Virus record (IMG/VR): IMGVR_UViG_3300013306_000002 | Coordinates: 1-64,000 of that record | From: a virus | Strand: one strand, 5' to 3' | DNA length: 64,000 nucleotides | Shown: in pieces, positions 1,519 through 53,037 of the stretch | How positions within the stretch are numbered: position 1 is the first letter of the stretch | Layout of the letters: every line of letters starts with the position of its first letter | Translations under genes and position numbers: made by a program | Notes under the pieces: generated by a model | The model's input: only the letters and a program-made list of their open reading frames with translations | Databases searched by the model: none | What the model was told of the DNA's origin: nothing

Positions 1519-1936
1519 CGCCATGCCTGTTGTCGCCGAGCCCGCCGTCCCCGCCTCGCTGATTCCGCTGCTCATCGCTGCGGTCCTGGCGCTCGCGGGC
1601 GTGATCGCCTACCTGTTCCGCTACTACTCGAAGCGGGCCGAGGATCACAGCAAGGAGCGCGAAAACTGGTCCAGGGAGCGCGAAGCATGGGCGGCGGAGC
1701 GCGTACGGCTCGAGCGCTTCCAGGTGGACCTCCGTGCCGAGTACGAGACGAAGTACCACTCCACCCTCGAGACCCTCTACAAGGAGGCTCGCGAGAACGA
1801 GGCGCTCGCGCGGCGCGAGTATGCCGAGAACATGGAGGGCGTCGCCAAGGCGGCTGAGGCCTCCAACAGCAAGGTTGCTGCGGTCATGGACAAGATCTAT
1901 GACTATCTGATCCGGCCGCGCCGGACCCCACACTGA
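1511..1936 (+). CDS. N-terminal TM plus coiled-coil protein (holin-like or membrane protein)
   Basis: LIPLLIAAVLALAGVIAYLF followed by a charged helical region. Confidence 0.6.
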   Translation: MDDAMPVVAEPAVPASLIPLLIAAVLALAGVIAYLFRYYSKRAEDHSKERENWSREREAWAAERVRLERFQVDLRAEYETKYHSTLETLYKEARENEALARREYAENMEGVAKAAEASNSKVAAVMDKIYDYLIRPRRTPH

Positions 1937-1950
1937 AGGAGATAGCTCAA

Positions 1951-2187
1951 ATGGCACGAAGGAAGTTTCCCGAGGGTAGCGGCATCGTGAATGCGCAGGT
2001 GGAGTCGGCGTGCCTACGGGCGATCGACTCGTGCTTACTCGTGGGCAGATCCGCGGACCGGCTGGGCACCGAGCTCGACCACATGACCCCGCCACCCGGA
2101 TCCGGGATCATCCGGCTTCCAGTGGAGGAGGATGACAGCCTCATGGTGGCGGTGAGAGAGGCCAGAGAGGCGGCCAGTAAGTCATAG
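1951..2187 (+). CDS. Hypothetical protein
   Basis: AAGGAG Shine-Dalgarno upstream; 78 aa. Confidence 0.55.
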   Translation: MARRKFPEGSGIVNAQVESACLRAIDSCLLVGRSADRLGTELDHMTPPPGSGIIRLPVEEDDSLMVAVREAREAASKS

Positions 2188-2337
2188 CGGCGCCAGCGCC
2201 GCCCTTGCGGGCTCCCCTCCGGCGACCTGGGCATCCGGGGCAGCGGGATGCCAGAACAGGCTATCAGAAGGTCCAGCCAACCAGAAATTGCAAATAGGGG
2301 GTTGACTTAAGTTGGGGATGCGCGCGGTGTCGATCTC

Positions 2338-3984
2338 GTGCCCATCCTCTTCGTCAACGGCAGGCGGCGCGGTCTGCGAATCCGTGGCCGCGCGGCGGTG
2401 AGCAATCCGGCGCGGCGACGAGCGCGGCGGGGTCCGCATGGTACGCATCGCCTGCGCCCGACGACCCAGGAAGCCTTCATTCGTCGCCTCGAGAAGGACG
2501 GCTACATGCCGATCGCGGCAAAGGACGCGTGGGAGCGTCGGCAGGCGCGGCGGCGGCGCGGCAAGAAAAACCCCGCCCGCAAACGCCGCCGCCCCCGGTA
2601 CGGCGCGCCCGATCGGCCGCCACATCACAAGCGCAAGGGACGCCAGCCCGCCGCGCTCGCCCGCTACTGGGCGAAGCACGGTACCCGCACTCGGCGGCGC
2701 CACCGCATGCCCAAGGGGCTGAGGAACTACTGGGCGAAGCATCGCAGGAATCCAGCCCGGCGGCGCCGCGCCGGCAACGCCCACCCGTGGGCGGTCAAGA
2801 AACGGCGACGGGCGGCGCTCAAGGGCTGGCGCAGCCGCAAGAACCGCAGCCCCAGGAGCAAGTCAATGGCCAAAGGGTCACGGAAGCGAAGCGCCGCCAT
2901 GAAGCGGTACTGGAGGGCCCGCAAGGCCGCTGGCAAGGCCGGCGCCCTGGGTCGCACCAAGCGTCGGCGCGCGCGCCGCCGTACGGGCAAGCGCCGTGGT
3001 CGCGCCAGGAAGGTGCGTCACAACAAGAAGCGTCGGCGCATGCGCCGGTCGCGCCGTCGTACCGTGCTCGGCGGCGGGCGAACGCGCCGTACCCGCATGC
3101 GGCGCAAGATGACCCGGCGTCGTCGCCGGTCGCGCCGGGCCTCGCGCATGCACATGATGCTGGGCCCGGATGCCGCTACCGCCCGGATGAACCCCGGGCG
3201 TCGGCGCAGGAAGCGGAGGCGGTCGCACCGGCGTGGGTACACCGTGCGGCGCAGGCGGCGGCGTTCGCATCACCGCCGCCGGTCGCACCGGCGCGGGCGC
3301 CGGAGGTCCTACCGCCGGTATCGTCGGAACCCCGGGCTGGGCGACATTTTCAGCGGGATCAGGCGAGTGATCCCGCTTGCCCTGAGCTTCCTGGGCAACC
3401 GGATGGCGGTGAACAAGATCGGTCCGATGCTCCCGGTGGTGTCTTCACTGGGGACACTCCAGGGGCCGGTCCTCTCGCTCGGGTCGATGCTGCTGACGGA
3501 GTTCCTCACCAAGAAGGTGGGCGCGCTGTCGAAGTACCGCGAGGAGGCCGTGATGGGGGCGCGGTTTCAGTTCCTGGCGTCCCTATGGACGGCCTTCGCC
3601 CCGGCCAGCATCCAGTCGGCGGTCGGCGACTACGTCAACATGGGTGACTACGTGGCGGTCGGCGGCGCGCCCCCGCTGAACGACCGGATCACCATGTCCG
3701 ACTATATCGCGGTCGGCAGCGATGGCGTGGAGCAGGATCTGGGCATGGGCGCTGAGGAGGAACTGGGGGTTGACGAGGAACTCGGCAACGTGCTCCTTGG
3801 CGGCATGCCGGGACCGGTCAGCGGGTCCCAGGGCATGCTGAAGCCGGTCCCTTCCCAACAGTTCATCTCGCCCATCCCGGCCCGGTCGTTCACCAAGCCG
3901 ATCCCCGGCGTGACCAACGCGTACGACAACCCCGCGGATCTGTACGCGGGCATCTTCGGCGGGAAGTTCGGCGGCGGGGGCTGA
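2338..3984 (+). CDS. Arg-rich (protamine-like) core protein with NP repeats, fused to a membrane-associated domain and an acidic Gly-rich tail
   Basis: About 330 aa of R/K/H-rich sequence punctuated by SNPARRR, KNPARK, RNPARRR, MNPGRRR and RNPGLGD; the C-terminal domain aligns with 35122..35760; lies directly upstream of the capsid candidate. Confidence 0.7.
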   Translation: MPILFVNGRRRGLRIRGRAAVSNPARRRARRGPHGTHRLRPTTQEAFIRRLEKDGYMPIAAKDAWERRQARRRRGKKNPARKRRRPRYGAPDRPPHHKRKGRQPAALARYWAKHGTRTRRRHRMPKGLRNYWAKHRRNPARRRRAGNAHPWAVKKRRRAALKGWRSRKNRSPRSKSMAKGSRKRSAAMKRYWRARKAAGKAGALGRTKRRRARRRTGKRRGRARKVRHNKKRRRMRRSRRRTVLGGGRTRRTRMRRKMTRRRRRSRRASRMHMMLGPDAATARMNPGRRRRKRRRSHRRGYTVRRRRRRSHHRRRSHRRGRRRSYRRYRRNPGLGDIFSGIRRVIPLALSFLGNRMAVNKIGPMLPVVSSLGTLQGPVLSLGSMLLTEFLTKKVGALSKYREEAVMGARFQFLASLWTAFAPASIQSAVGDYVNMGDYVAVGGAPPLNDRITMSDYIAVGSDGVEQDLGMGAEEELGVDEELGNVLLGGMPGPVSGSQGMLKPVPSQQFISPIPARSFTKPIPGVTNAYDNPADLYAGIFGGKFGGGG

Positions 3985-4018
3985 TCGAAGGCGCGCCGCG
4001 CGGGGCGCCGGTAGGAGA

Positions 4019-4051
4019 CGAGTTCACGAGATCGAACACCGAGTTCACGAG
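4019..4051 (+). promoter_or_regulatory. 12-bp direct repeat CGAGTTCACGAG with 21-bp period upstream of the capsid gene; candidate regulator-binding site
   Basis: Copies at 4019-4030 and 4040-4051; ACCGAGTTC (4038-4046) recurs at 4761-4769, upstream of the next gene. Confidence 0.4.
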
Positions 4052-4133
4052 TTGTGGCTGGCGGTCCCAGCCAGGTTGACAGCGGAAATTCCTCCAACGT
4101 CGCCGAATCAAACGAAACCAAAGGACTCCTTCG

Positions 4134-4709
4134 ATGCCTCGTCTCCACGGATACCGCGAGCGGCTGCACCAGCCGCTGTGGGACACCCTGGTGCGCTCCA
4201 CCGGCGCGCCAGCCAACCCCATCGTGAATAGCACCAAGCTCTTTGGGAACGCCAACATCGGCAACCTGGCGCTGACCAACCTCCAGACCGCCGGCCAGCT
4301 CGCGTCGGATCAGACCTACGTGATCCTGGCGCTGCGCTGCTTCATGTTCTTCGACGGCCCGAACCGTCGCGACAACTACCTGAACGTGACGTCGCAGTTG
4401 TTCTGGACGCTGGTCGTTGGCACAAAGCCAATGTTTCAAGCACCTTGCTGGTACTACCCGGCGGGCGGCGGCGTGTGGGGCTTCGACTCCACCGCGTCGA
4501 TCTTCTCGCACGGCACTCCGGAGCAGGCGTCGATCCTGAAGCTCGCGAGGCCGATCATCGTGCCCGTCCGCCAGAACTTCGCCGCCCAGGCGGACTTCTT
4601 TGCGATCGGCACGACGAGCGCCCTCAACGGCCTCAACGCGGCCGACACCGACGACATTCTGAACATTCTGTTCATGCTCGACGGTTTACAGACTCGCGAC
4701 GTCCAGTAA
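4134..4709 (+). CDS. Candidate major capsid protein (small, beta-rich, single jelly-roll-like)
   Basis: 191 aa with alternating beta-strand patterns; strongly C-ending codons; AAGGA SD; central in the virion operon; paralog at 33969..34715. The fold is inferred. Confidence 0.6.
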   Translation: MPRLHGYRERLHQPLWDTLVRSTGAPANPIVNSTKLFGNANIGNLALTNLQTAGQLASDQTYVILALRCFMFFDGPNRRDNYLNVTSQLFWTLVVGTKPMFQAPCWYYPAGGGVWGFDSTASIFSHGTPEQASILKLARPIIVPVRQNFAAQADFFAIGTTSALNGLNAADTDDILNILFMLDGLQTRDVQ

Positions 4710-4839: not shown

Positions 4840-5481
4840 ATGGACTCGAACGCCGCAGCGCTGGTCAGGATCCACAACACTGCCCTCGCCTCACACAAGG
4901 CCGCGATCGCCAATCTCCAGAACACCGTCAACCAGCTCGTCGCGACGGTGAACAGCCTCCAGGCCAGGCCCGACACGGTCTGGGATGAGATCAACAAGAT
5001 TCCCGGCAGGTGGATCGAGTCCACGCTGTCGGGCGAGGTGACGTTCACCATCTCCGATCTGGGCAAGCGAGCAACACCGGTCATCATCACGGTGTCGCAG
5101 GACGGCCCGTTCATCCAGACGCACTACCCCCTGGTCCTCTGGTTCCCCAGCGCACCCGACAACGCCAGCAACTTCGGGCGGTGGCGCCCGGTCGCGACCT
5201 TCCCCCTGCCCGACCAGGTGGTCGACACCGACATCATTGATCTGCAGTACGAGATCGTGGACGGTGGCTCGCAGCGGCAGTTCCAGAACGCGCCGCGCGG
5301 CCCCCTGTTCTCGAGGCCGGACAACGTGGTGCCCCTGCCCTCGCCCGTGCAGTGGGCACCCAACGCCACGCTGAATTTCGTGCCGATCTACCAAGCCATC
5401 ACCTTCAACGGCTCGACCGTCGCACCGACGCAGGGCACGCTTCACGTCGACTTCCCGGGCTTCCGTATCGTCAACCTCTGA
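4840..5481 (+). CDS. Candidate second/minor capsid protein (N-terminal coiled coil plus beta-sandwich)
   Basis: Heptad pattern IANLQNTVNQLVATVNSL, then a beta-rich domain ending LHVDFPGFRIVNL; follows the capsid candidate. Confidence 0.55.
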   Translation: MDSNAAALVRIHNTALASHKAAIANLQNTVNQLVATVNSLQARPDTVWDEINKIPGRWIESTLSGEVTFTISDLGKRATPVIITVSQDGPFIQTHYPLVLWFPSAPDNASNFGRWRPVATFPLPDQVVDTDIIDLQYEIVDGGSQRQFQNAPRGPLFSRPDNVVPLPSPVQWAPNATLNFVPIYQAITFNGSTVAPTQGTLHVDFPGFRIVNL

Positions 5482-12840: not shown

Positions 12841-13830
12841 ATGCCTTTCACCGGAACACCGATCGTCAAAGAGATCGCCGACAACCTCGTCCGCATCACA
12901 GGGCTAGCGCTCACAGGTGGGCAGGCTGGCACCATCGGGCTGCACGAATCCACGGTCCCGCCGGACATTCGCCTGCCGGTGTCGTTTCGACCCAGAACCT
13001 ACGAGTTCAGCAACATCCCCCCAGTCGTGTCGCTGCAGGATTCGGTGCAGATCTCCTACACCTTCACCCTGCCCGGATCTGTCGCCCCCCCGATCTCGGT
13101 GGTGAAGGCCGGCACGACCCCACAAGACTTCCTGGTTGTGATGGCCAACGCCAGTGTCGGGCCGGCGGCGATCCTGGGACGCGCCCAAGACTTCGGGGTG
13201 CTGGCCGCATCCACGATCACGAACACGGGGGGATCCGTTATCACCGGGGATCTCGGGCTGTCGCCCGGTACATCGGTGACAGGATTTCCGCCGGGAACGG
13301 TCACCGGAACGCAGCACATCACCGACGCAGCAGCAGCGGCGGCGCAGACCGACGCCACGGTTGCCTTCGTGGCGCTGGCGGCGCTGACTCCCTCTACCGA
13401 TCTGACCGGCCAGAACCTGGGTGGCCTGACGTTGCCACCGGGCAACTACCACTTCACCTCGAGCGCGCAACTCACCGGCACGCTGACCCTGGATGCCGCT
13501 GGCGATCCTGGGGCCACGTGGGTCTTCCAGATCGGCAGCACGCTGACCACTGCCAGCGCCTCCGCGGTGGCACTGATCAACGGTGCCGTGGCCGCCAACG
13601 TGTTCTGGCAGGTGGGGAGTTCGGCGACGCTGGGGACGACCACGACGTTCAAGGGAACCATCATCGCGCAGGCATCCATCACTGCGAACAACGGCGCCAG
13701 CGTCACCGATGGTCGGCTGCTCGCGCTCACGGGTGCGGTCACCCTAGACGACAACGCCATTACCGTCCCCGAGGCTGCCCCCGTGGTAATCACCAGCGGA
13801 CCCCTGGACGTCTACGTCAGGTTCCACTGA
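12841..13830 (+). CDS. Spike/decoration-like protein with an inserted ice-binding (DUF3494) domain
   Basis: FGVLAASTITNTG..ITGDLGLSPGTSVTGFPPG, LTLDAAGDP..WVFQIGSTLTTAS, NVFWQVGSSATLG; the flanks are paralogous to 32575..32931. Confidence 0.85.
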   Translation: MPFTGTPIVKEIADNLVRITGLALTGGQAGTIGLHESTVPPDIRLPVSFRPRTYEFSNIPPVVSLQDSVQISYTFTLPGSVAPPISVVKAGTTPQDFLVVMANASVGPAAILGRAQDFGVLAASTITNTGGSVITGDLGLSPGTSVTGFPPGTVTGTQHITDAAAAAAQTDATVAFVALAALTPSTDLTGQNLGGLTLPPGNYHFTSSAQLTGTLTLDAAGDPGATWVFQIGSTLTTASASAVALINGAVAANVFWQVGSSATLGTTTTFKGTIIAQASITANNGASVTDGRLLALTGAVTLDDNAITVPEAAPVVITSGPLDVYVRFH

Positions 13831-21315: not shown

Positions 21316-21783
21316 ATGAGAATTCTCGCGCTCGCACTCTGCATCGCCGCCTGCGTCAACGACGCTGCCACCGGAACATCCCGAGATCCGCTGTTGTTCG
21401 CCTCGGGGCCCAAGGCCTTCGAGGTGCTGGCCATGGCGCCGACGCTGCGCGGAATGGACCATCGCGCGATCGACTGCGGCGCGCCGGTCTCGGAGGCGGG
21501 GATTCTGACGTGCTCGCTGCTGGTGGCGTGCGCCCTGCCGATCGATGTCTCCCTGGTGTCCGGCGGCATCGAATTCCCGGGTGACGCCGAACTCTTCACG
21601 AAGTGCCTGATGACAGTGTCCGCCGCGGAGATCTACGTGGCGTGGCTCATGGGACGACAACTCAGTCCGCGCGACCTCGCCCCGGCGTATAACAAGCTCA
21701 AGGGTCTGTTCTCTACGCGGATCGAGAAAGAGACCGCCAAAAGGGCGTACCTGCCGGCGCCTTCGTGGACGTCGCACGGGTGA
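21316..21783 (+). CDS. Putative lipoprotein
   Basis: MRILALALCIAAC lipobox-like signal. Confidence 0.4.
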   Translation: MRILALALCIAACVNDAATGTSRDPLLFASGPKAFEVLAMAPTLRGMDHRAIDCGAPVSEAGILTCSLLVACALPIDVSLVSGGIEFPGDAELFTKCLMTVSAAEIYVAWLMGRQLSPRDLAPAYNKLKGLFSTRIEKETAKRAYLPAPSWTSHG

Positions 21784-21791
21784 GTGGACTC

Positions 21792-22641
21792 ATGGCCACG
21801 CGCAAGATCGAACAGGCGATGCTCCTGCCGCTCGGCGAGGATGCGAGCCTCCTGGACCACGTCAAGGATCTCCGTCCGCTCACCGATCTCGTCCTGCCGG
21901 ATGAGCCCCGCGGCGCGCTGGATCGCATCCTGGCCGAGAATTACCGGGCTGCAGATCTGCAGGCGCGCGGCCTTCGCCCGGCCAACCGCCTCCTGTTCCG
22001 GGGGCCGCCCGGATGCGGCAAGACCGTGGCGGCCGGTGGCCTAGCGCTGGCGCTGGGTATTCCGCTGGTTGTTGTTCGGCTCGATGGCCTCATCGACCAG
22101 TACCTAGGGAACACCTCCAAGAACCTCCGCAAGGTGATCGACTTCGCCCACGCTCAGCGCGTGGTCCTGTTCCTGGATGAGGTGGACGCGATCGGGCGCG
22201 CGAGAAACGGCCGGCTTAATGACGTCGCGGAGATGAACCGCATCACGAACTCGCTTTTGGTCATGCTCGAGGGGTTCGCGGTCCAGGCTCGCCCCTCCCC
22301 TTCCCTGCTGGTCGCCGCAACCAACCACCAGGACATGCTCGACGTGGCCATGGAGCGCCGGTTTGACCAGATCGTTCCCGAGGCCCACCGCCATCCAGGC
22401 AGCGGCGCTTCTGAAGCGGCTGGTAGAGCGCTACGACACCAGAACGATTACCAAGCTGTCGCCGCCACCGTGGAAGGCATGGCCCAAACGACTGGCCGGG
22501 ATGTCATTCGCGGACGTTGAGCGGCTGGCGCTTGACGCTGTCAAGTCGACCGCGATGGACGAGGCGCTAGGCATCGAACAGGCGCTGATTTCGGCGAAGA
22601 CTACGCATAAGCGACGAGGGTCGCCGCGGGGACGGAGATGA
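21792..22641 (+). pseudogene. AAA+ ATPase with a frameshift near 22372
   Basis: Walker A GPPGCGKT, Walker B LFLDEVD, AATN and RRFD; the lid (FPRP...GMSFADVE) continues in the 22363..22641 frame. Confidence 0.75.
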
Positions 22642-24187: not shown

Positions 24188-24750
24188 TGCGCTGGCGCGA
24201 GTCATGGCGAGCGGACCCCGCCGGGCGCCGTATCGCCGACAACCACTACAACCGCCAGAAGGTGGGCGCCAACCAGTTCGTGCCGCCCGGCCGGTGCGTG
24301 GTGCTGGTCATCCACGACCACCAGGTGGACGCCGCAGCGCTGTGGGTGACCTCGTGGCCGTTCGGCGAGTACGTGAAGCACGCATGGCCCGGTACCTGGG
24401 TGTGCTCAGCGTTCCGCAACCAGCGGCGTGACCTCTTCCTGTCCTCGGACCTGATCGTCGAGGCGCTGGCAGCGACGAGGTTCTACTGGGAGCCGCCGCC
24501 TGAGGGCATCATCACGTTCATCGACCCGTCCAAGACCAAGCACAAGCGGGATCCCGGGCGCTGCTTCCTGAAGGCGGGATTCCACGTGTCCGGGAAGGCC
24601 CCTGCCGGGGGCACCATGCGCCCTGTGTGCATCTGCGATGGTAAGCCCCCCCGGACGGCGGGCGGCCTCGTAGCGCTCCACATGGCCACGTCGAGGTTGC
24701 CAGCGGAATGCTCACCGCTGGGGGCGCAGGCGAGCCTGGGGCTTGGCTGA
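24184..24750 (+). CDS. Mom-like GNAT-fold DNA modification protein
   Basis: ADNHYNRQ..G..QFVPPG, WVCSAFRN, IITFID...PGRCFLKAGF. Confidence 0.6.
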   Translation: MMRWRESWRADPAGRRIADNHYNRQKVGANQFVPPGRCVVLVIHDHQVDAAALWVTSWPFGEYVKHAWPGTWVCSAFRNQRRDLFLSSDLIVEALAATRFYWEPPPEGIITFIDPSKTKHKRDPGRCFLKAGFHVSGKAPAGGTMRPVCICDGKPPRTAGGLVALHMATSRLPAECSPLGAQASLGLG

Positions 24751-25404
24751 ATCGAACAAGGAGATCGCGATGCAAACGACCGACGGCATTGTTCACATCC
24801 ATCATGAGGCGGACTGGTCATCCACGGCGCTGGTGTCATGGCAACCGCCGGGAGTTGACCCAAGAGAAGTCTCCGTGGAGGCAGAGTTGCTGTGGGGCGA
24901 CAACCACGGCCTGAGCCCAGATCTTCGGCTCCCTGCGCCTGTTCATGTCAGGGCAGTTCGACTGGCGACTCGAGGTCGCGCGCAGTGGGAGCACGATCAG
25001 GTGCTGTCGCGTCCCGTTCCCGGGCGGGTGATGGTTCCGTGGTCCGCGCGCGACACGGAGAAGCGGCACGACCCGACCGATGCATGGCTGTTCGATATCG
25101 CCCTCGCGAATGACAGTTCCGGTCCCAGGGCGCCACGCCGGCGGATCCCCGTGGGGTGGGTGGAGAACGTCGCGATCGCGATGTTCAACAACGGCCTCAC
25201 CTCCAAGCCGTCCTCGGTCCTCGTCGACATCGGAGCGCCTCGCCGTGACCCCTGCACCTGCGGGAAGGCGTTCCATGACGGCGGGTGTCCGCAGGACGAG
25301 GTCTTCCCCAGGATCGGGCGACTCGCCATCAACCTGCAGCGAATCGACAGGTTCATCGAGACGATGCAGGCGGCGAAGACTTCGACGGAACGGATCTTCG
25401 TCCC

Positions 25405-39918: not shown

Positions 39919-41673
39919 TCAAGGGCGCTGGAAGACTCGGCTGCCGCTGCACCCTCCGCTGCCGGCCCCTCCGACATCATCGCCACCAGGCGTGCTGAGT
40001 CCGCTCGCGACATTGACGACGAACGGTGTCTGCAGATCGAATTGGTTCTTGGTCGGAACCAGGGTGCGAAAATCTACCCATGTCCTCACGGGTAGGGTTC
40101 CGACCTTCATATCGCCTCCGGTCCCTGTGATGTTTGTGGCGTCGTCGAGCACACGCACGAAGGCCCCATCATTCACACGGAGTCCAACCCCGCCGTTGCC
40201 GGTGCCTGTGACACCCGCTGTCTTAAGCATGACCAGATCTCGGACTGATAGTCCATCGCCGACGCTATCGTCGATTTGCACTTCCTGTAGAGAGTAAGCA
40301 CCGGCCTGAGAGGCAGCAAAACCATCACCCGTGCTGTTTCGTATCAGCACGTTCAGGAGTTCCCATCCACCAGGGAAAAGGGCGCCCTCGTTCGTTGCGA
40401 ATAGTCCTGGGCCCAACGCCGCACATCCATCGAGAACGACCTGTCGGAAGACTTGGCCGGGGCCACCGCTTATCCCAAAGCCGGAATCCAACAGGAGACT
40501 GCGCCGAGGAGTCCAGGACGATGCTTGCGCGAAGACGAAGTTGCGGATCACGTTGGACAGCGTCAGGCATTGCAACTGGACGCCAGACATGACCAAGCCG
40601 TCGATGTCGCAGAGCTCCGTGACTGGTAGAAGGGTGTTGGAGATCCCCAGCGACAGTTGAGCGTCGGACCCTCCGCCAGCGATCGTGAACTTGATCCCCT
40701 GAATGGCGAGGGATGGCGCCGCAGACACGTCGAAGCCGCTCCCGTCGCCTCCTGGCCCAGCGGATGCGAACACCGCGGACGGCTCGACGAGCGACAGCGT
40801 CTGACTCGTTACGTGACTCGGCGTATTGCACAAAAATAGATGGGTCGCGTCGGAGCCGTAAACGACGCAGTTGACCTGCGCGTCTCCGGCGCTGCCGATG
40901 ATCATGGCCGTCTTGGCGCCGTCGGCCGCCCACGAAGCGCGGGGCGGGGCCACCTGGACGGAGGTCAACCCAGGCCCAATCGATGTGATGGCGACGATAT
41001 CCCCGGCGGGCACGGTCGTGTCTGCTGAGGGGAGCCCACTGAACGAGCGGGGAGTCGCGCGAATATTGAGCGCTGCCAGCGCGGCAAAGGGGAGTGTCGA
41101 TGGATCCAGAAACAGATATTCCTGGACGGATGCTTGAAATGGTGGAAGTGCGTATCCAGTGACGGGGAACGGTTCGGTCAGGCCCGTCACATCGACGATA
41201 TAGGCGTAGCCAGCGGCAATCACGTTCGGAACCTGGAGGATCGCGTGTTTGAACGTCCGATAGGGATGCGCGAGCGAGCCGTCGCCTGTCTCATCGCTTC
41301 CGGTTGTTCGGGCGTAAATCGTGGTGACGACCGGGGTGTTGACCGGAAACGGCGGCGATGTGGTCGCTCCGGTGAGGAACGGCTGCGGATCAAGGTGCTG
41401 CGCGAGCGAGCCGTCATCCGGAGGACTACCGAATGAGCGCATCACCGGATGCAAGACCTCGCACCACGCCTGACAATCTCCGACGCCATCCGCGACGTTT
41501 CGTAGCGTCACCGTGGTCGTCGTCGCTGCGACCACCTCAAAGGTGTTCGGAAACTGCAAATCCACCCTGTCGGGCGTAAGGCGCCTGCCGTTGATCACCA
41601 GCCCATGGGCGATCTGTTGCGTACCGCCGATCGGAATCCCTGCAAATCTGATGATCGCGTAGAGCCTGTCCAT
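39919..41673 (-). CDS. Spike-like protein, family member 2 (beta-helix-like cargo)
   Basis: Shared anchor, then IYARTTGSDETGDGSLAHPYRTFKHAI, typical of the start of right-handed beta-helix proteins. Confidence 0.7.
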   Translation of the reverse strand: MDRLYAIIRFAGIPIGGTQQIAHGLVINGRRLTPDRVDLQFPNTFEVVAATTTTVTLRNVADGVGDCQAWCEVLHPVMRSFGSPPDDGSLAQHLDPQPFLTGATTSPPFPVNTPVVTTIYARTTGSDETGDGSLAHPYRTFKHAILQVPNVIAAGYAYIVDVTGLTEPFPVTGYALPPFQASVQEYLFLDPSTLPFAALAALNIRATPRSFSGLPSADTTVPAGDIVAITSIGPGLTSVQVAPPRASWAADGAKTAMIIGSAGDAQVNCVVYGSDATHLFLCNTPSHVTSQTLSLVEPSAVFASAGPGGDGSGFDVSAAPSLAIQGIKFTIAGGGSDAQLSLGISNTLLPVTELCDIDGLVMSGVQLQCLTLSNVIRNFVFAQASSWTPRRSLLLDSGFGISGGPGQVFRQVVLDGCAALGPGLFATNEGALFPGGWELLNVLIRNSTGDGFAASQAGAYSLQEVQIDDSVGDGLSVRDLVMLKTAGVTGTGNGGVGLRVNDGAFVRVLDDATNITGTGGDMKVGTLPVRTWVDFRTLVPTKNQFDLQTPFVVNVASGLSTPGGDDVGGAGSGGCSGSRVFQRP

Positions 41674-41798: not shown

Positions 41799-44700
41799 CT
41801 AGAACCCGACCCAGCCTGCGTTGCCACTGTCACGCGCCCCGCGAAACAGAGCGATCTGCGCCATGATCCGGGGACCGTTGTGAGTAATTGTGGGCGCTGG
41901 CATGCTCGAGTTTAGCGCTCTGGCACCGAACAGTTGCATCTGGACACCCTGATTCACGCCGAACGCCCCAACGACCGGAGAATTGGGGAACTGGATCCAT
42001 TGCGGATCCGTGATCGCCGCGCCTGTGTCGCCTTCGTTGAGCATGATCATGACGACCCCAAGATCGTTCTCTGAGTGGGCGGGCCATGGTGGGGCAATGC
42101 TCACGTTGCCACCCTGCGTTCGAGGGCCATTCGCGACCCAGTGTGGTGGCACGGTAGGGACCTGAGGAGCCAGGGCGAACGTGTACGTGCCGTTGCCAAA
42201 CTCGCTTGAAACCGCGTTCTGCCGCACGGTCCCTACGCCGCTGCTTCCGAAGAGGGGCAGCACACCGGCTGCGGCGGCGAAGTCTCCACCGCCCCCGGTG
42301 TCCGTCTCTTGAGTGATCTGCGCGAAGCTAGCCAAGGGAGCGTTGGTCCACTGATCCCAGTCCGAGCTCCCGGCGCCGGGCACGGCCACCAGTGCCTGCA
42401 CAACAAGGCAGTTGTCGATCGTGGTCACAACAGCGTCCAGGTTGAGGATCTGCCCTGTGGCCTTGACGTCGCCCGCTCGATCCGTCTTCGCGGTGACGTT
42501 CACGGGGAGACCGCCGATTTCCTTGACATAGAAGGTCGACCCCGATCCACCGTCGCGGCGGTAGAAGGTGGAGGCCAGCGGAGCTGTGACGACGTTCTCG
42601 GGGGATCCGTAGCCTGAATACTGCTGGTGGGGCCCGTCGACCTCGATCCAGTAGCCGCTAGTCAACCCGCCCACGTTCTGGTTGACCGACTCGCCGGTCC
42701 GATTCCCGAACAGGACAAGCTTCTTGACCTGGGTCAGGACATCGAATGCCCCGGCCTGGTTGTCGAAGAAGACGCAGTCGGTGCACGTCGGCACCGGCTG
42801 GTTGTCGTAGGCGAAGTTGTTGCACACGGACAGGTACTTGATGGACGGCGGGCTGAACAGGAATACGTGGATCCCGTGGGGGTTCGCGCCGCGGATCGTG
42901 TTGCCCTCGATGTTCACCCGCAAGTCGTTGAAGAACACCCCCCAGTCGCTGGTGGTGGTCAGATGGATGCCGTAGCGTCCGGCGGTTTGCCCGTCGCTCG
43001 CCACGCAGTCGAGGGTGTTGCCGACAACGCTGACGACGCCGCCGGTCGGCTGAATCGTGAAGGCCGCTGCGGGCGGCGTCGACTGCGGCTGTCCGCCGGA
43101 GTCCGTCCAGCCGTGGATTCCGTCGTTGTGCCACGTCGCCAGGGTAAGTGTGTCGCTCGTGTTGGAGAAGACGGTGGCCACGACCCCACCAGACACCACT
43201 TGGTGTCCCAGGAACTCGTTGGCGGTCCAGCCAGCTCCCGTTTGGACCAGCGTGGTATTCGTGATCGCGGTGGCGACCCCGGCGAAGCCAGCGCCGCCGC
43301 CCGGCGAGGCCACGTAGATCCCGTCCACCCCTCCTCGCGCATGGACGGTGTTGCCCCGAATGGTGACATTCGCTGACTGCGTCTCGGAGACAGCATCCAC
43401 CACGAGCCGGAACACTTCGATGCCGCCCCGGTTGGCATCGTTCGTCTGGCCGTTGCGCATGTAGACGTAGTTGTCCAGGATCCAGATGTCGTCGCAGAAC
43501 TCCGTGAGGAACACGGGTGCGTCCGAGCCAGAGACGAAGTCGCTGATGACCGTGTTGCCAGCGAACTGCACGTCGATGGCGTCCGAGATGAGAACCGATC
43601 CATAGATCCGACAGCGGTTCACCCGGTAGTCCTGCGCATAGTTCCAAAAGGCCGGGGTCCCTGCGGCCCCACCCGAGATGCTCAAGGCCTCCTTCGACAG
43701 ATCCCGAAATTCGTCCCACCATAGGGACAGCACGCAGTCCTCGATGACGATCTTCACGACCTGTGCTTCGACTGGCTCGGTGTCGATTGCGGTCGTGATG
43801 ATGTTGGTGAAGTTGCAGTGCTCGAAGCGACCGTCGGTCACGTAGATCAGGGATGCGCCGTTGCGGGCGCACATGTCGAAGGTGCAGTCGCGAACTACGA
43901 CCCCCTGCGTGCCGCCGATGGCCCCCGACTCGCCGCCGCTTGAGCCATCGCCGCCCAGCCAGAGCCCGTCACCGTACGCCTGGCTGAAGGTGACGCGGTT
44001 GATCTTGAGGTTGCGGATGTCGCCCCCCACGGCATGGGAGAAGATCAGGTGGTTGTGGGGGTCGCGCTGGGTGGGTTGGTTGATACCGTTGGCCGGATTC
44101 CACACGCCGTCGCCGGTGTGCATGGTGCCGGTGCCACCGGACGCGCCCGTGAAGGTGGTCGGCGTCTTGCCGGTGTACGTGACGATCTGATCCCCGTCGA
44201 GTTGCGTGCCGATGACAATCTGACCTGAGCTCGGAAACGTGGTCGTGCTGGCGACGTTGATAACGGCCTGGGGCAGAACGGCGCCATCGCTGGCAACCGT
44301 GATGTGCGTGTTGCCAGGGCTCAGCAAGCCCACAGGGTCACCGATGCGACCCAGATCGCCGTTGCCGCGCAGCGTGCCGGTGCCACCGGACGCGCCCGTG
44401 AAGGAGGTGGCGGTCTTTCCGGTATACGTGATGGTCTGCGCGCCGCCGGGCAGGATGATGAGCACCGTGCCGGACGACGGGAAACCCGCCGTGCTGGCGA
44501 CGTTGATAACGGCCTGGGGCAGCACGGCGCCGTCGCTGGCGGACGCCACTGTCGTGACGGCGTTGCCCCAGTTCCCGTTGAGCTCGAGATCCGCGATCTC
44601 CATGTTCGTTCCGCCAGAGATCTCGAGCAGGGAGCAGGAACTCGCGCCGGCGGCGACGTTCGCCACCTGCTTGATTACCGAGTGCCCGAGCACGCCGTAC

Positions 44701-45248
44701 ATGGCCACGTTGTCGCCGCGGATCAGGAGGCAATGGAAGGTGCCGGGTGCCCGGCTCACCATGTAGATGCCTGGCGGAAAGTAGATGGGTCCAGCGCCGC
44801 CGGTCAGAATGGCCAGATCGATCGCCGCCTGGATGGGGGCGCGGTCATCGGCGATGCCGTTGCCGACCGCTCCCAGCGTCTTCACGTTGATCACAATGGG
44901 AGGCGTCGGGGGCCCGAAGTTGGCGGCCCCGGACTTCATCACGAAGGGACGGGGCGTCAGATGCAGCGCCAGTGACCCGTCATCGGGCGCGAGCCCGAAC
45001 GACCGCTCGATGGGATGCCACACCTCCGCGAGAACCAGGATGGTGCCCGGCGCCGCCCCGTCGTTCCGCACGCTCAGGTTCGCCGTGTCGCTGGAGACCA
45101 GGGCGAAGTTGCCGCTGTCATCCCCCGCAAACCCCAGGTGGTCGGGCGCGCGAGCGACGCCGTTCATCACCAATCCATGCGGAAGCGTTGCCGTCGCCCC
45201 CGCGGGGACGGCAACGAAGGCAACATACTTCTTGATGGCGTCCAGCAA
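41799..45248 (-). CDS. Large spike/depolymerase, family member 3 (pectate-lyase-like beta-helix)
   Basis: Shared anchor; INVKTLGAVGNGIADDRAPIQAAID..IYFPPGIY; PbH1-like repeats; YSGYGSPENVVTAPLASTFYRRDGGSGSTFYVKE tailspike-type segment. Confidence 0.8.
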   Translation of the reverse strand: MLDAIKKYVAFVAVPAGATATLPHGLVMNGVARAPDHLGFAGDDSGNFALVSSDTANLSVRNDGAAPGTILVLAEVWHPIERSFGLAPDDGSLALHLTPRPFVMKSGAANFGPPTPPIVINVKTLGAVGNGIADDRAPIQAAIDLAILTGGAGPIYFPPGIYMVSRAPGTFHCLLIRGDNVAMYGVLGHSVIKQVANVAAGASSCSLLEISGGTNMEIADLELNGNWGNAVTTVASASDGAVLPQAVINVASTAGFPSSGTVLIILPGGAQTITYTGKTATSFTGASGGTGTLRGNGDLGRIGDPVGLLSPGNTHITVASDGAVLPQAVINVASTTTFPSSGQIVIGTQLDGDQIVTYTGKTPTTFTGASGGTGTMHTGDGVWNPANGINQPTQRDPHNHLIFSHAVGGDIRNLKINRVTFSQAYGDGLWLGGDGSSGGESGAIGGTQGVVVRDCTFDMCARNGASLIYVTDGRFEHCNFTNIITTAIDTEPVEAQVVKIVIEDCVLSLWWDEFRDLSKEALSISGGAAGTPAFWNYAQDYRVNRCRIYGSVLISDAIDVQFAGNTVISDFVSGSDAPVFLTEFCDDIWILDNYVYMRNGQTNDANRGGIEVFRLVVDAVSETQSANVTIRGNTVHARGGVDGIYVASPGGGAGFAGVATAITNTTLVQTGAGWTANEFLGHQVVSGGVVATVFSNTSDTLTLATWHNDGIHGWTDSGGQPQSTPPAAAFTIQPTGGVVSVVGNTLDCVASDGQTAGRYGIHLTTTSDWGVFFNDLRVNIEGNTIRGANPHGIHVFLFSPPSIKYLSVCNNFAYDNQPVPTCTDCVFFDNQAGAFDVLTQVKKLVLFGNRTGESVNQNVGGLTSGYWIEVDGPHQQYSGYGSPENVVTAPLASTFYRRDGGSGSTFYVKEIGGLPVNVTAKTDRAGDVKATGQILNLDAVVTTIDNCLVVQALVAVPGAGSSDWDQWTNAPLASFAQITQETDTGGGGDFAAAAGVLPLFGSSGVGTVRQNAVSSEFGNGTYTFALAPQVPTVPPHWVANGPRTQGGNVSIAPPWPAHSENDLGVVMIMLNEGDTGAAITDPQWIQFPNSPVVGAFGVNQGVQMQLFGARALNSSMPAPTITHNGPRIMAQIALFRGARDSGNAGWVGF
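44125..44545 (-). repeat. Internal duplication of about 55 aa in the spike gene
   Basis: ASDGAVLPQAVINVAST..FPSSG...TYTGKT.T.FTGASGGTGT occurs twice. Confidence 0.8.
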
Positions 45249-51948: not shown

Positions 51949-53037
51949 TCAGAACGAGTCTGCCATGGCCTTGGCCCGCACGTCTCGCAAGTCGAGCGTC
52001 CTTCGTGCCTTACTCACTTCGGCTACGATGTCGCACCCCACCAGCCAGCGGGCGCTCAGCCGCTGCCCTGAAATCGCGCTGTACTCGCGCAGGAGCGCGA
52101 GGTCGTCCATGGTCACCCGATCGGCGACCCAGACCGGGATCATCGCGCTGAGCGCGTTCTGGTGGCTCCTGTCGAATGCCGGGTCCCACCTGCCCTGGGA
52201 CAGTTCCCGGATGATCTCCGCAGCGGTGAACGGAGGCACCAGCGCAAGCACGGGTCGCGCCCCTCTCCCCCCCTCCCCCTCTCCGGAAGAGATCAGATCC
52301 TCCGGGATCCGGGATCCGGGATCCGGGATCCTGTTGGTATCCGATACGGTATCGGATACGGTTTCCGGAGCCCTGATTTCTTTCGGTTGACGCAAGATGG
52401 CAGAGTTATCCACAGATGGCTGTGGATTCTGTGAACAACCTGCTCCATGCTGCGGAGCGATACCGTTTCCAGACCCCGAAGCAGTCGCAAAGAGAGATGG
52501 CTGAACGGAAGTCCCGGTGTCCGAATCGGCCAGACGTCGGACGCCGCGGCGCCGCGGTTGCGGGACCACGATGGTCGCGAACGTCTCCTGCCATGCGGAC
52601 TGGTGATGCGAGCTCATGGTCTTGCCTGATGCCCGGGATCCTTCGTCGCAGATCCACGCAAGCAACTTCACATGGCTGTCGCGGACGGGGCACTGCGGCA
52701 CCGTCCGGAACTTCGTCCACCACCCCAGGATCACCTTGCCGTTAGATGGGTACTCGCCCGCATCGGGGAGTTCGCAGAGACGCAAGACGCGGAGTTTGGC
52801 ATCGTATTCGACGAGTTCACGCTGGAGCAGCTTGTCGAGCGCGTCGATGACATCGTCAGGCGGGAGGCGAGCAGCATCAGCCATCGATGGAATGCCGCCG
52901 TGCCAGAGCCCGGGAACATGCCGCTTGGCTTCAGCGGAGGTGTAGAGCGCCAACCACAGGACACGCGGCAACGGGGCTAGGTCGGTCCATGGCTCCCAGT
53001 CCCACAGCGAGGAACCCAGCCGGGTGAAGGCCGTCAT
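51949..53037 (-). CDS. Phage replication initiator-like protein
   Basis: N-terminal wHTH-like region (LWLALYTS..PGL...LVEYD), a low-complexity linker containing DNA repeats, and a helical C-domain. Confidence 0.6.
   Translation of the reverse strand: MTAFTRLGSSLWDWEPWTDLAPLPRVLWLALYTSAEAKRHVPGLWHGGIPSMADAARLPPDDVIDALDKLLQRELVEYDAKLRVLRLCELPDAGEYPSNGKVILGWWTKFRTVPQCPVRDSHVKLLAWICDEGSRASGKTMSSHHQSAWQETFATIVVPQPRRRGVRRLADSDTGTSVQPSLFATASGSGNGIAPQHGAGCSQNPQPSVDNSAILRQPKEIRAPETVSDTVSDTNRIPDPGSRIPEDLISSGEGEGGRGARPVLALVPPFTAAEIIRELSQGRWDPAFDRSHQNALSAMIPVWVADRVTMDDLALLREYSAISGQRLSARWLVGCDIVAEVSKARRTLDLRDVRAKAMADSF
52301..52359. repeat. Iteron-like repeats (candidate origin) within the initiator gene
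   Basis: TCCGGGA four times (52301-52328), plus the inverted repeat GTATCCGATAC-g-GTATCGGATAC (52337-52359). Confidence 0.65.

Follow-up and report, generated by a model that had tools for sequence, protein, structure and literature searches.

A single open reading frame (ORF) at positions 2338-3984 on the plus strand of a 64,000-nucleotide stretch of viral DNA, here called the window, encodes an Arg-rich protein that we modestly favor as a virion core protein, a protamine-like neutralizer of the genome in a tailless virus with a jelly-roll capsid. The window is the first 64 kb of IMG/VR record IMGVR_UViG_3300013306_000002, a single contig of 82,646 bp in which about 130 bp are repeated at the two ends; the record is of the direct-terminal-repeat class, and CheckV puts its completeness at 100%. 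The explanation that fits best as a whole, and that we would place slightly ahead of even, is a core protein of the virion of an uncultured, tailless virus with a jelly-roll capsid, whose genome of about 82.5 kb would be circular or have redundant ends. Within the ORF, residues 1-332 hold 116 Arg and 27 Lys vs. only 7 Asp or Glu (35% Arg, net charge +136), and residues 177-332, the distal part of this region, are 43% Arg with a net charge of +78. The disordered region's charge of +78 to +136 per chain, the placing of the gene directly ahead of those for the capsid, and a genome in which no packaging motor is recognizable together suggest a protein that neutralizes and condenses DNA.

An initial annotation of the sequence had described a protamine-like core polyprotein, segmented by Asn-Pro (NP) motifs and tethered to a membrane domain. 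Composition and the family alignment bear out its general layout, in that a basic region of protamine type is followed by a conserved domain, predicted to be helical, and then by an acidic tail. The Arg runs, the five NP contexts, the GLGD tetrapeptide, the DY and EELG repeats, and the internal ATG with its AGGAG all lie where that annotation had placed them. The parts of the gene are as follows, with lengths in amino acids (aa) or nucleotides (nt) and structural confidence as the predicted local distance difference test score (pLDDT).

2338-3984, plus strand: whole gene, long (L) form; ORF with a GTG start, 548 aa, 63.0 kDa, isoelectric point (pI) 12.0, net charge +131
2338-2358, plus strand: N-terminal peptide (M)PILFVN with the GTG start; homologues start with ATG at the same residue, and the family consensus is MPI[LM][YF]VNP
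2338-2865, plus strand: L-specific basic extension, residues 1-176, net charge +58; about 22-225 aa long in the family, with short predicted helices
2404-2409, plus strand: NP motif 1 (SNPARRR), residue 23; a predicted helix begins at P24
2569-2574, plus strand: NP motif 2 (KNPARKRRR), residue 78
2749-2754, plus strand: NP motif 3 (RNPARRRR), residue 138; a predicted helix begins at P139
2854-2858, plus strand: AGGAG Shine-Dalgarno sequence within the coding frame, formed by a rare AGG Arg codon and then AGC Ser, 7 nt 5' of the ATG
2866-2868, plus strand: internal in-frame ATG (M-A-K), start of the short (S) form; product of 372 aa, 41.9 kDa
2866-3333, plus strand: shared basic region, residues 177-332; 132-189 aa long in the family, mostly with pLDDT below 50
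3190-3195, plus strand: NP motif 4 (T-x-R-M-N-P-G-R-R-R-R), residue 285; nearly invariant in the family
3328-3333, plus strand: NP motif 5, the Y-R-R-N-P-G junction, residue 331; boundary of the basic region and the helical domain, nearly invariant
3334-3657, plus strand: four-helix domain of moderate hydrophobicity, residues 333-440, with many Gly, Ala and Ser residues
3658-3981, plus strand: acidic and Gly-rich tail with DY repeats and three EELG-type repeats, after which come IPARSFTK and YDNP, the end being GIFGG-FG; low pLDDT

The GLGD tetrapeptide occupies residues 333-336, directly after the last NP. VGDY, MGDY and MSDY are found at residues 429, 435 and 453, the first two (3622-3651) within the last helix, and QDLG, EELG and EELG follow at residues 466, 474 and 480; many columns of the tail are at least 90% conserved across the family. 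A helix motif, P-A-A-L-x-R-Y-W, occurs in three copies in the window protein, two of them in the L-specific extension, and is carried by about half of the family. The basic region is predicted by AlphaFold2 to be disordered (pLDDT below 50), and the corresponding regions of homologues are 35-58% Arg plus Lys with 0-5% acidic residues.

The whole protein matches no Pfam-A family (E<=0.1) and no PHROGs family. Searches by tblastn with the whole protein, its C-terminal domain and its jelly-roll neighbor return no match among 50,697 phage records, and a family profile has no match at E<=1 among all PDB chain sequences. In the ESM Atlas all matches are unnamed, mostly viral clusters, with a best score of 0.91. 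A word-indexed search with the C-terminal 223 residues returned 26 homologues of 301-550 aa, many of them on contigs of 72-99 kb, and an exhaustive HMMER search returned 162 clusters at 50% identity (E<=1e-3), with 121 at E<=1e-10. The family proteins retrieved number 167, none of them named.

Related loci, 47 in all, were collected from IMG/VR, GTDB genome contigs and JGI metagenomes. All 29 that are complete at the 5' side carry a single unbroken frame from the N-terminal peptide to the stop codon, and the full-length members share one plan: an N-terminal peptide, a variable basic stretch, an internal M-A-K/R, a near-constant basic stretch, a junction, and the helical domain with its tail. 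The peptide reads MPI[LM][YF]VNP across the family and PILFVNG in the window's clade. The second basic stretch includes a small non-basic island ending in T-x-R-x-N-P-x-R-R-R-R, and the junction takes the form Y-R-R-N-P-G or R-M-R-S-N-P. The helical domain ends in A-P-A-S, after which come the D-Y and E-E-L-G repeats, I-P-A-R-S-F-T-K, then Y-D-N, and finally L-Y-x-G-I-F-G-G-x-F-G. Public gene calls begin at three places, namely the true N-terminus, the internal MAK and a Met just past the junction, with resulting lengths of 200-550 aa (P0002, P0029 and P0033 among them). Because the frame is unbroken in every 5'-complete locus, the shorter database proteins are, judging from this comparison, gene-caller choices or contig ends and not separate genes; database entries for the family are inconsistent as a result of these three kinds of mis-start. 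A fusion of two separate genes peculiar to this genome was likewise rejected, as none of the 29 complete loci has a stop codon separating the parts.

Some family contigs have been placed in metagenome-assembled genome (MAG) bins assigned to Peribacteria, Myxococcales and Thermomicrobiales. A host assignment from these bins was rejected, since each family contig there is a whole virus-sized contig of 72-88 kb and bin labels on entire virus-sized contigs are not usable as host evidence. For the GTDB genome contigs L008, L009 and L010 (72-88 kb), the MAG labels most likely reflect mis-binning.

Coding evidence and the internal start

ORF 2338-3984 is a genuine gene under purifying selection. Its GC content at third codon positions (GC3) is 0.86 overall and 0.74-0.94 in every 150-nt slice of the frame, and the long ORFs that overlap it have their highest GC at codon position 1, which is an off-frame pattern. 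When compared with the close relatives L003 and L002, third-position differences exceed those at the first and second positions in all three parts of the gene (L-specific, shared basic and C-domain). Even in the L-specific part, changes at third positions number 63 vs. 35 at first and 34 at second positions. Against L003, the ratio of synonymous-only to non-synonymous codon changes is 37:46 in the L-specific part, as for a coding but faster evolving sequence, and 48:23 in the shared basic region, the strongest purifying selection of the three parts. The initial annotation had left room for a GC shadow frame in the Arg-rich part, with translation starting only near 3330. The shadow idea fails because GC3 is high in this frame, the overlapping ORFs show the off-frame pattern, and the basic part is both conserved and selected; the Arg-rich part is real coding sequence. 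A start near 3330 was rejected in its own right, as no start codon exists there and the first Met past the junction is residue 356. A scan of positions 1900-4200 gave no sigma-70-like promoter site, and its single terminator-like site is on the minus strand, at chance level. The sequencing runs listed for this sequence include no RNA run; the one run that covers it in full is a rhizosphere metagenome, which may be the source sample, and the others contain small shares.

The internal ATG at 2866 was compared across 30 non-redundant loci that span the site. The homologous codon is ATG, followed by codons for Ala and Lys or Arg, in 29 of them, the exception being L042, which is without the Met. 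AGGAG or GGAGG lies 5-12 nt upstream in 22 of the 30, and six more have a four-base core, one locus having neither; both ATG and Shine-Dalgarno sequence are thus kept at the homologous site in 28 of 30. The AGG codon in the Shine-Dalgarno sequence usually has AGC Ser after it. Of 2,667 Arg codons counted across the family's basic regions, 4.4% are AGG, and in several loci the AGG of the Shine-Dalgarno sequence is the sole AGG of the region. The five-base sequence precedes none of about 130 other in-frame Met codons, with a background of 1.6% of codon positions. A naive binomial calculation gives P of about 3e-30 for its presence at the internal start, a value that is inflated because the loci are related.

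This conservation, in conjunction with the rare AGG codon and the low background, supports the proposal made in the initial annotation that ATG 2866 and its AGGAG give rise to a second isoform. The one frame likely yields two nested products, predicted at 63.0 and 41.9 kDa. The first start varies by clade: the window's clade has a GTG with no Shine-Dalgarno sequence, and distant clades have an ATG preceded by AGGAG. From the two start signals one would expect the short form to be abundant and the long form rarer.

A more extreme version of this ratio, in which the short form is the sole real product, the upstream 176 codons are rarely or never translated, and the N-terminal peptide is left over from a decaying ancestral start, seems to us quite improbable. 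It would fit the bare GTG at 2338 in the window's clade, the L-specific part being the fastest evolving and ranging from about 22 to 225 aa, and the internal start often being picked by database gene callers. However, in none of the 29 complete loci does a stop interrupt the frame over these 50-225 codons, and GC3 stays at 0.74-0.88 upstream of the internal start. The third-position excess noted above (63 vs. 35 and 34) belongs to this very part. Furthermore, MPI[LM][YF]VN is kept across clades that are less than 40% identical elsewhere, and the distant clades have ATG with AGGAG at the first start. The upstream 176 codons are coding, since they are open in all loci, high in GC3, under purifying selection (albeit weaker), and headed by a conserved peptide.

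The NP units and the question of cleavage

NP dipeptides are twelve-fold enriched in the basic regions of 51 family members, with 233 seen vs. 18.9 expected from composition, and 66% of the Asn residues there are followed by Pro. Their context is [RK]-[RKVSM]-N-P-[AGS], after which 55% of the next four residues are Arg or Lys. Conservation of the NP sites, proposed in the initial annotation as a check on their importance, holds for two of the five: N285-P286 and N331-P332 are nearly invariant, but the three upstream sites lie in the variable extension. At motif 4, 27 sequences show no variation in P286, R288 or R290 and conservation of 90% or more for N285; among 51 sequences, P286, R288 and R290 each reach 90% or more. 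At the junction, N331 does not vary, conservation is 90% or more for R329 and P332, and the form [RK][RKS]NP is found in most of the 167 retrieved proteins. The N-terminal site reads NG and not NP throughout the window's clade, and P0023 and P0036 have NG at the junction. Most family members have their first NP at residues 7-8. Two of the five NP sites in the window protein coincide exactly with predicted helix starts (P24 and P139). We infer that the [RK]-x-N-P-[AGS]-Arg(n) units are structural punctuation, as turns or helix N-caps, between basic segments, and not cleavage sites.

The contrary idea, put forward in the initial annotation, is that of a core polyprotein processed during maturation: a tethered precursor would be cut at NP, either by a viral protease or by spontaneous succinimide scission, to free protamine-like peptides. 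We consider this unlikely. The enrichment of NP and the near invariance of two sites would suit it, as would the placement of one of these at the exact basic/helical boundary, a sensible place for a release cut, and the tandem RRRR-Y-RR-N-P units of P0010 and P0026. Asn-Pro bonds are also chemically prone to self-cleavage, and the reovirus mu1 protein is said to be cleaved via succinimide at Asn42-Pro43. The adenovirus protease acts on pVII and pre-mu. The corresponding protease was sought in the complete genome in six frames, where adenain (Peptidase_C5, PF00770) has no match at E<=1 and the S78 prohead protease was not found; Pfam scans of the genome's ORFs show no protease family. The sole protease-like signal in the genome is a sub-threshold match to the transglutaminase core, which is cysteine-protease-like, at 24738-24860 on the plus strand (17.2 bits vs. 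a cut-off of 23, E 3e-4), and it counts, as far as it goes, in favor of cleavage. A transglutaminase-like protease near 78-82 kb was also considered and rejected, as ORFs 78499-80568 and 80819-81730 have no Pfam family at E<=0.01.

Beyond the protease searches, the distribution of the motif also argues against cleavage. In the rest of the genome NP occurs 38 times vs. 34.6 expected, and the [RK]xNP motif is present in one other, non-structural ORF alone. Because the motif is confined to the core protein in this way and NP is otherwise at expectation, NP is not a general virion maturation signal. The substitution of NG for NP at conserved sites fits a turn better than a requirement for proline at P1', and a cut at the family's first NP, at residues 7-8, would free a mere heptapeptide. 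As for the LG sites, which had been proposed for processing along with NP, the LGD past the junction is not conserved, and most members read GGMLIDLAK there. On these several grounds, the processed polyprotein of the initial annotation is not upheld. A narrower form of it strikes us as about equally unlikely. In this form NP bonds would serve as programmed scission points (by succinimide or by an unrecognized protease): the precursor would first tether the genome to the assembling membrane and capsid, and cuts at the RRNPG junction and the NP sites upstream of it would then free protamine-like peptides. If true, NP scission would give a bacterial virus its own version of the core maturation of adenoviruses, and would do so in a lineage that packs 82 kb of DNA with no packaging motor.

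Helical domain, capsid module and proposed function

Within the four-helix domain, AlphaFold2 places helices at residues 335-364, 372-393, 401-420 and 423-440, with block pLDDT values of 82-93. A structure search with the full-length model returns generic helical-bundle matches to residues 335-428, the best of which (Z 8.1, root-mean-square deviation (rmsd) 6.2, 99 residues aligned) is background for helical models. The best 19-residue Kyte-Doolittle mean is 1.25 in the window protein; the family median is 1.55, with 19 of 51 members at or above 1.6, the value taken for an integral membrane segment, and true transmembrane (TM) proteins of the same operon reach 1.85-2.65. The membrane domain of the initial annotation is thus predicted to be helical and is moderately hydrophobic, with a hydropathy that is borderline against that of the operon's TM proteins. 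Tethering to a membrane by this domain is plausible from its sequence, with anchoring left uncertain because of the borderline hydropathy. A complex prediction for the acidic tail (431-548) with the jelly-roll neighbor scored 0.00, which is no verdict and evidence neither way.

The genes around the core gene, and a second set of related genes elsewhere in the window, are the following.

4134-4709, plus strand: jelly-roll protein, 191 aa, likely the major capsid protein from model and synteny; downstream neighbor of the core gene
4840-5481, plus strand: another small, conserved protein in the capsid module, 213 aa; found in synteny in related loci at 47-88% identity
33969-34715, minus strand: jelly-roll paralogue, 248 aa, 36% identity; the helical-domain paralogue lies upstream
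34767-35111, minus strand: small protein with an ...LGSLGDD leader, within the second capsid-type module
35122-35760, minus strand: paralogue of the junction and helical domain, 212 aa, with no long Arg tract; it starts M-A-R and has RRY..K-A-N-P

The paralogue at 35122-35760 aligns with the core protein by hhalign at a probability of 96.7% (E 4.6e-10, 102 columns), and GGAG lies 6 nt before its ATG. Because it keeps the helical domain without the long Arg tract, the helical unit is a module in its own right. The interval 33969-35760 on the minus strand, in which it lies, looks like a second, inverted and diverged capsid-type module.

In related loci the order of genes is fixed: up250, up184, up141, up78, the core gene, the jelly-roll protein and the second small protein. 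The 191-aa neighbor is 62-99% identical and syntenic in more than 40 loci, and is far more conserved than the core protein. Its model, at a pLDDT of 71 and a predicted template-modeling score (pTM) of 0.65, is an eight-stranded beta sandwich, for which nearly every Foldseek match is a viral coat protein with a single jelly roll (among them 6oj0_Z, E 2.7e-3). Structural Z scores (VIA) are 7.8 for satellite panicum mosaic virus and 7.4 for 6oj0_Z of SPV1 (rmsd 3.3, 122 aligned), with TNF-like jelly rolls scoring alike. The model thus supports a jelly-roll fold for the neighbor but no specific kinship, since the TNF-like proteins do as well as the viral ones. In two loci (L027:1177-1747 and L044:3528-4410) the jelly-roll match is split by about 390 and 260 unmatched nt, respectively; an insertion could account for this, as could an intron-like element or a fault of assembly. 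In the structural region several small proteins, starting at 215, 5481, 6762, 8071 and 8762 on the plus strand and at 35111 on the minus strand, begin with M-[ST]-Y or similar, followed by a basic stretch and [AGLM]-[LM]-G-D; examples are RRRSLGDD, RRRGAMGD, FQAMGD and RRGGMGD. From its sequence, this could possibly be a shared targeting or maturation leader, unrelated to the NP motif.

None of the usual packaging or capsid components, namely a terminase, a portal, an HK97 capsid protein or an FtsK/A32 ATPase, was found in a Pfam scan of 72 ORFs. The scan did detect an integrase, DNA methylases, DUF5131, PAPS-reductase, ice-binding and beta-helix/pectate-lyase domains, and a classic AAA+ ATPase. 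When packaging and capsid families (FtsK_SpoIIIE, Pox_A32 and Terminase_6N among them) were sought in all six frames, there was likewise no match at E<=1, a result that a diverged ATPase could escape. The AAA+ ATPase is at 21765-22520 on the plus strand (PF00004, E 9e-26). Walker A motifs occur in this ORF, in a 362-aa ORF at 51949-53037 on the minus strand that belongs to no family, and in the helicase fusion at 67608-71051 of the whole genome, and in no others. This last ORF, on the minus strand (L001:3608-7051), joins a DUF6094 methyltransferase and an SNF2/ResIII-type helicase in one protein of 1,147 aa, and GC3-based gene calling missed it. The ice-binding (E 4e-64) and beta-helix/pectate-lyase domains, which can tentatively be placed by ORF size at 12841-13830, 39919-41673 and 41799-45248, may be spike or depolymerase candidates.

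How the core protein might work can be outlined from its parts. The disordered, polycationic N-terminal region would bind viral DNA non-specifically, and would neutralize and condense it with +136 charges in the long form and +78 in the shared part. By simple arithmetic, some 1,300 chains of the long form, or 2,300 of the short form, would be needed to neutralize in full the genome's phosphates, about 165,000 in number. The four-helix domain and acidic tail would fasten the condensed DNA to the interior of the particle, whether to a membrane inside it or to the inward side of the shell, and capsid and membrane would assemble around the nucleoprotein instead of DNA being pumped into a preformed shell. 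An abundant short form would come from the Shine-Dalgarno-led ATG 2866, and a rarer long form, which adds a variable basic stretch and a conserved hydrophobic N-terminal peptide, from the weak GTG 2338. The NP units would separate the basic DNA-binding segments as turns or helix caps.

An emphasis on lipid and not on DNA leads to a different proposal, in which the Arg-rich region binds anionic phospholipids (phosphatidylglycerol (PG) or cardiolipin) and, with the helical domain, shapes an internal vesicle under the capsid as a membrane-organizing or lattice protein. Such a protein would resemble VP11 of the Thermus phage P23-77, reportedly a small basic minor capsid protein that works via lipid-protein contacts. 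The fusion of a basic region to a moderately hydrophobic helical domain is in keeping with this, as is an operon full of small proteins with clear TM segments (1.85-2.65); the paralogue, with the helical domain and only a short basic leader, suggests further that the domain has a function of its own. We nevertheless regard the proposal as rather unlikely. A charge of +78 to +136 over 150-330 disordered residues is far above the need of a lipid patch and matches that of DNA condensers (PMC8156859, PMC6163548). With no recognizable packaging motor, moreover, 82 kb of DNA needs some other means of compaction, and the lipid and DNA roles are not exclusive.

A further proposal, a genome-protecting or pilot protein that is delivered with the DNA, shields it from restriction or nucleases or leads its entry, and condenses it only secondarily, is in our estimate very unlikely. 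The T4 internal proteins offer a likeness. The polycationic potential for DNA binding serves this proposal equally well, the several DNA methylases and the SNF2 helicase-methyltransferase fusion amount to a heavy investment of the anti-restriction type, and the hydrophobic N-terminal peptide and helical domain could act on membranes. On the other hand, a fixed place at the head of the capsid genes and a strong Shine-Dalgarno sequence are those of a bulk structural protein, and protection or piloting could be a function added to condensation.

Several points weigh against the DNA-condensing core protein that we prefer. Its DNA binding and virion location are predictions from genes, and these, together with the isoform ratio and the assembly pathway, are things we infer. 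The conserved Shine-Dalgarno sequence and ATG would indicate a capacity for internal initiation, which is not the same as accumulation of two proteins. The view of NP as a turn or N-cap is likewise drawn from a low-confidence model of the basic region, and three of the five NP sites are off the predicted helix starts. The helical domain is of borderline hydrophobicity, so its putative role as a membrane anchor is uncertain. The jelly-roll assignment comes from a medium-confidence model (pLDDT 71), and Z scores of 7-8 are reached by unrelated models too. Finally, either 21765-22520 or 51949-53037 could encode an unconventional packaging or assembly ATPase, as a null result with profiles does not prove absence.

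Comparison with known systems

Cultured bacterial viruses with double-stranded DNA (dsDNA) are understood to fill their capsids with essentially naked DNA by means of an ATPase motor, whereas dedicated polycationic genome condensers are known from adenoviruses, baculoviruses, ascoviruses and the archaeal SPV1. We know of no cultured bacterial virus for which neutralization or compaction of the genome by a protein such as this has been described, and full-text literature searches returned no description of such a protein in a bacterial virus. The family, with its 162 clusters and complete virus contigs of 72-99 kb from soil, rhizosphere and similar samples, suggests a widespread lineage of uncultured bacterial viruses that would condense their DNA by protein, with small jelly-roll coat proteins and no recognizable motor. 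It also offers a simple, testable system, as one gene with two probable nested products and a repeated [RK]-x-N-P-small-Arg run could show how a nucleoprotein core is built and linked to its shell.

In-frame nested pairs are familiar from lambda C/Nu3, T7 gene 4A/4B and phiX174 A/A*. The likeness to the lambda C/Nu3 type lies in one frame, a common C-terminus, and a shorter product from an internal, Shine-Dalgarno-led ATG; the lambda, T7 and phiX174 pairs, however, are protease/scaffold or replication proteins, whereas the predicted pair in the window would be DNA-binding core proteins differing by an extension and an N-terminal peptide. For the NP units, the nearest likeness is to the SPKK/SPRK minor-groove turn motifs of the sea-urchin sperm histones H1 and H2B, and to AT-hooks. 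Repeated turn units, Ser/Asn-Pro followed by basic residues, in a polycationic DNA-condensing tail follow the same logic as [RK]-x-N-P-[AGS]-R-R-R. The window motif differs in having Asn and not Ser or Thr first and in its much longer flanking Arg runs, and the likeness is one seen in the sequences alone. Protamines and baculovirus P6.9 are below about 15 kDa, almost wholly Arg-rich, and without any other domain; by comparison, the window products, at 63.0 or 41.9 kDa, add a 108-residue helical domain and a 108-residue tail.

In SPV1 (Portogloboviridae), a VP1 nucleoprotein core lies inside a membrane and a single-jelly-roll shell of VP4 and VP10 (PMC8459092). The model of the 191-aa neighbor resembles 6oj0_Z of this virus at Z 7.4, a value within the range of TNF-like proteins and plant virus coats and therefore no sign of common ancestry. 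SPV1 is archaeal, with a genome of about 20 kb vs. 82.5 kb for the window virus.

A closer likeness in size and charge is to P64 of the ascovirus SfAV-1a, described as a two-part protein of 64 kDa and pI 12.2 whose basic repeat region was shown to condense genomic DNA (PMC6163548). Like P64 as so described, the window protein, at 63.0 kDa and pI 12.0, is a large two-part cationic protein, although the basic domain is C-terminal in P64 and N-terminal here. No Pfam or PHROGs family and no named relative links the two, which are compared by description. The virus that carries P64 infects insects and has a virion of quite another kind, and the portion of the P64 description drawn on here notes neither an internal start nor an NP motif.

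Adenovirus VII, Arg-rich and of pI 12.35, is present in 500-800 copies for 36 kb, and the N-terminal peptides of the adenovirus core precursors dock in a capsid protein (PMC8156859). Like VII and mu, which condense dsDNA in a capsid of the jelly-roll lineage, the window protein is Arg-rich and very basic, with a comparable charge density. There is no sequence relationship to them (no Pfam match), and the window protein is two to three times larger and carries a helical domain and an acidic tail. The adenain search of the genome was empty, and the adenoviral cleavage pattern is absent from the window protein; adenovirus has a packaging ATPase, and none is recognized in the window virus; and the host is bacterial here but animal for adenovirus. 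Searches of Pfam, PHROGs and PDB sequences gave no sequence link to these proteins or to SPV1 VP1; the core protein would, on the best reading of these analogies, be functionally like adenovirus VII or ascovirus P64.

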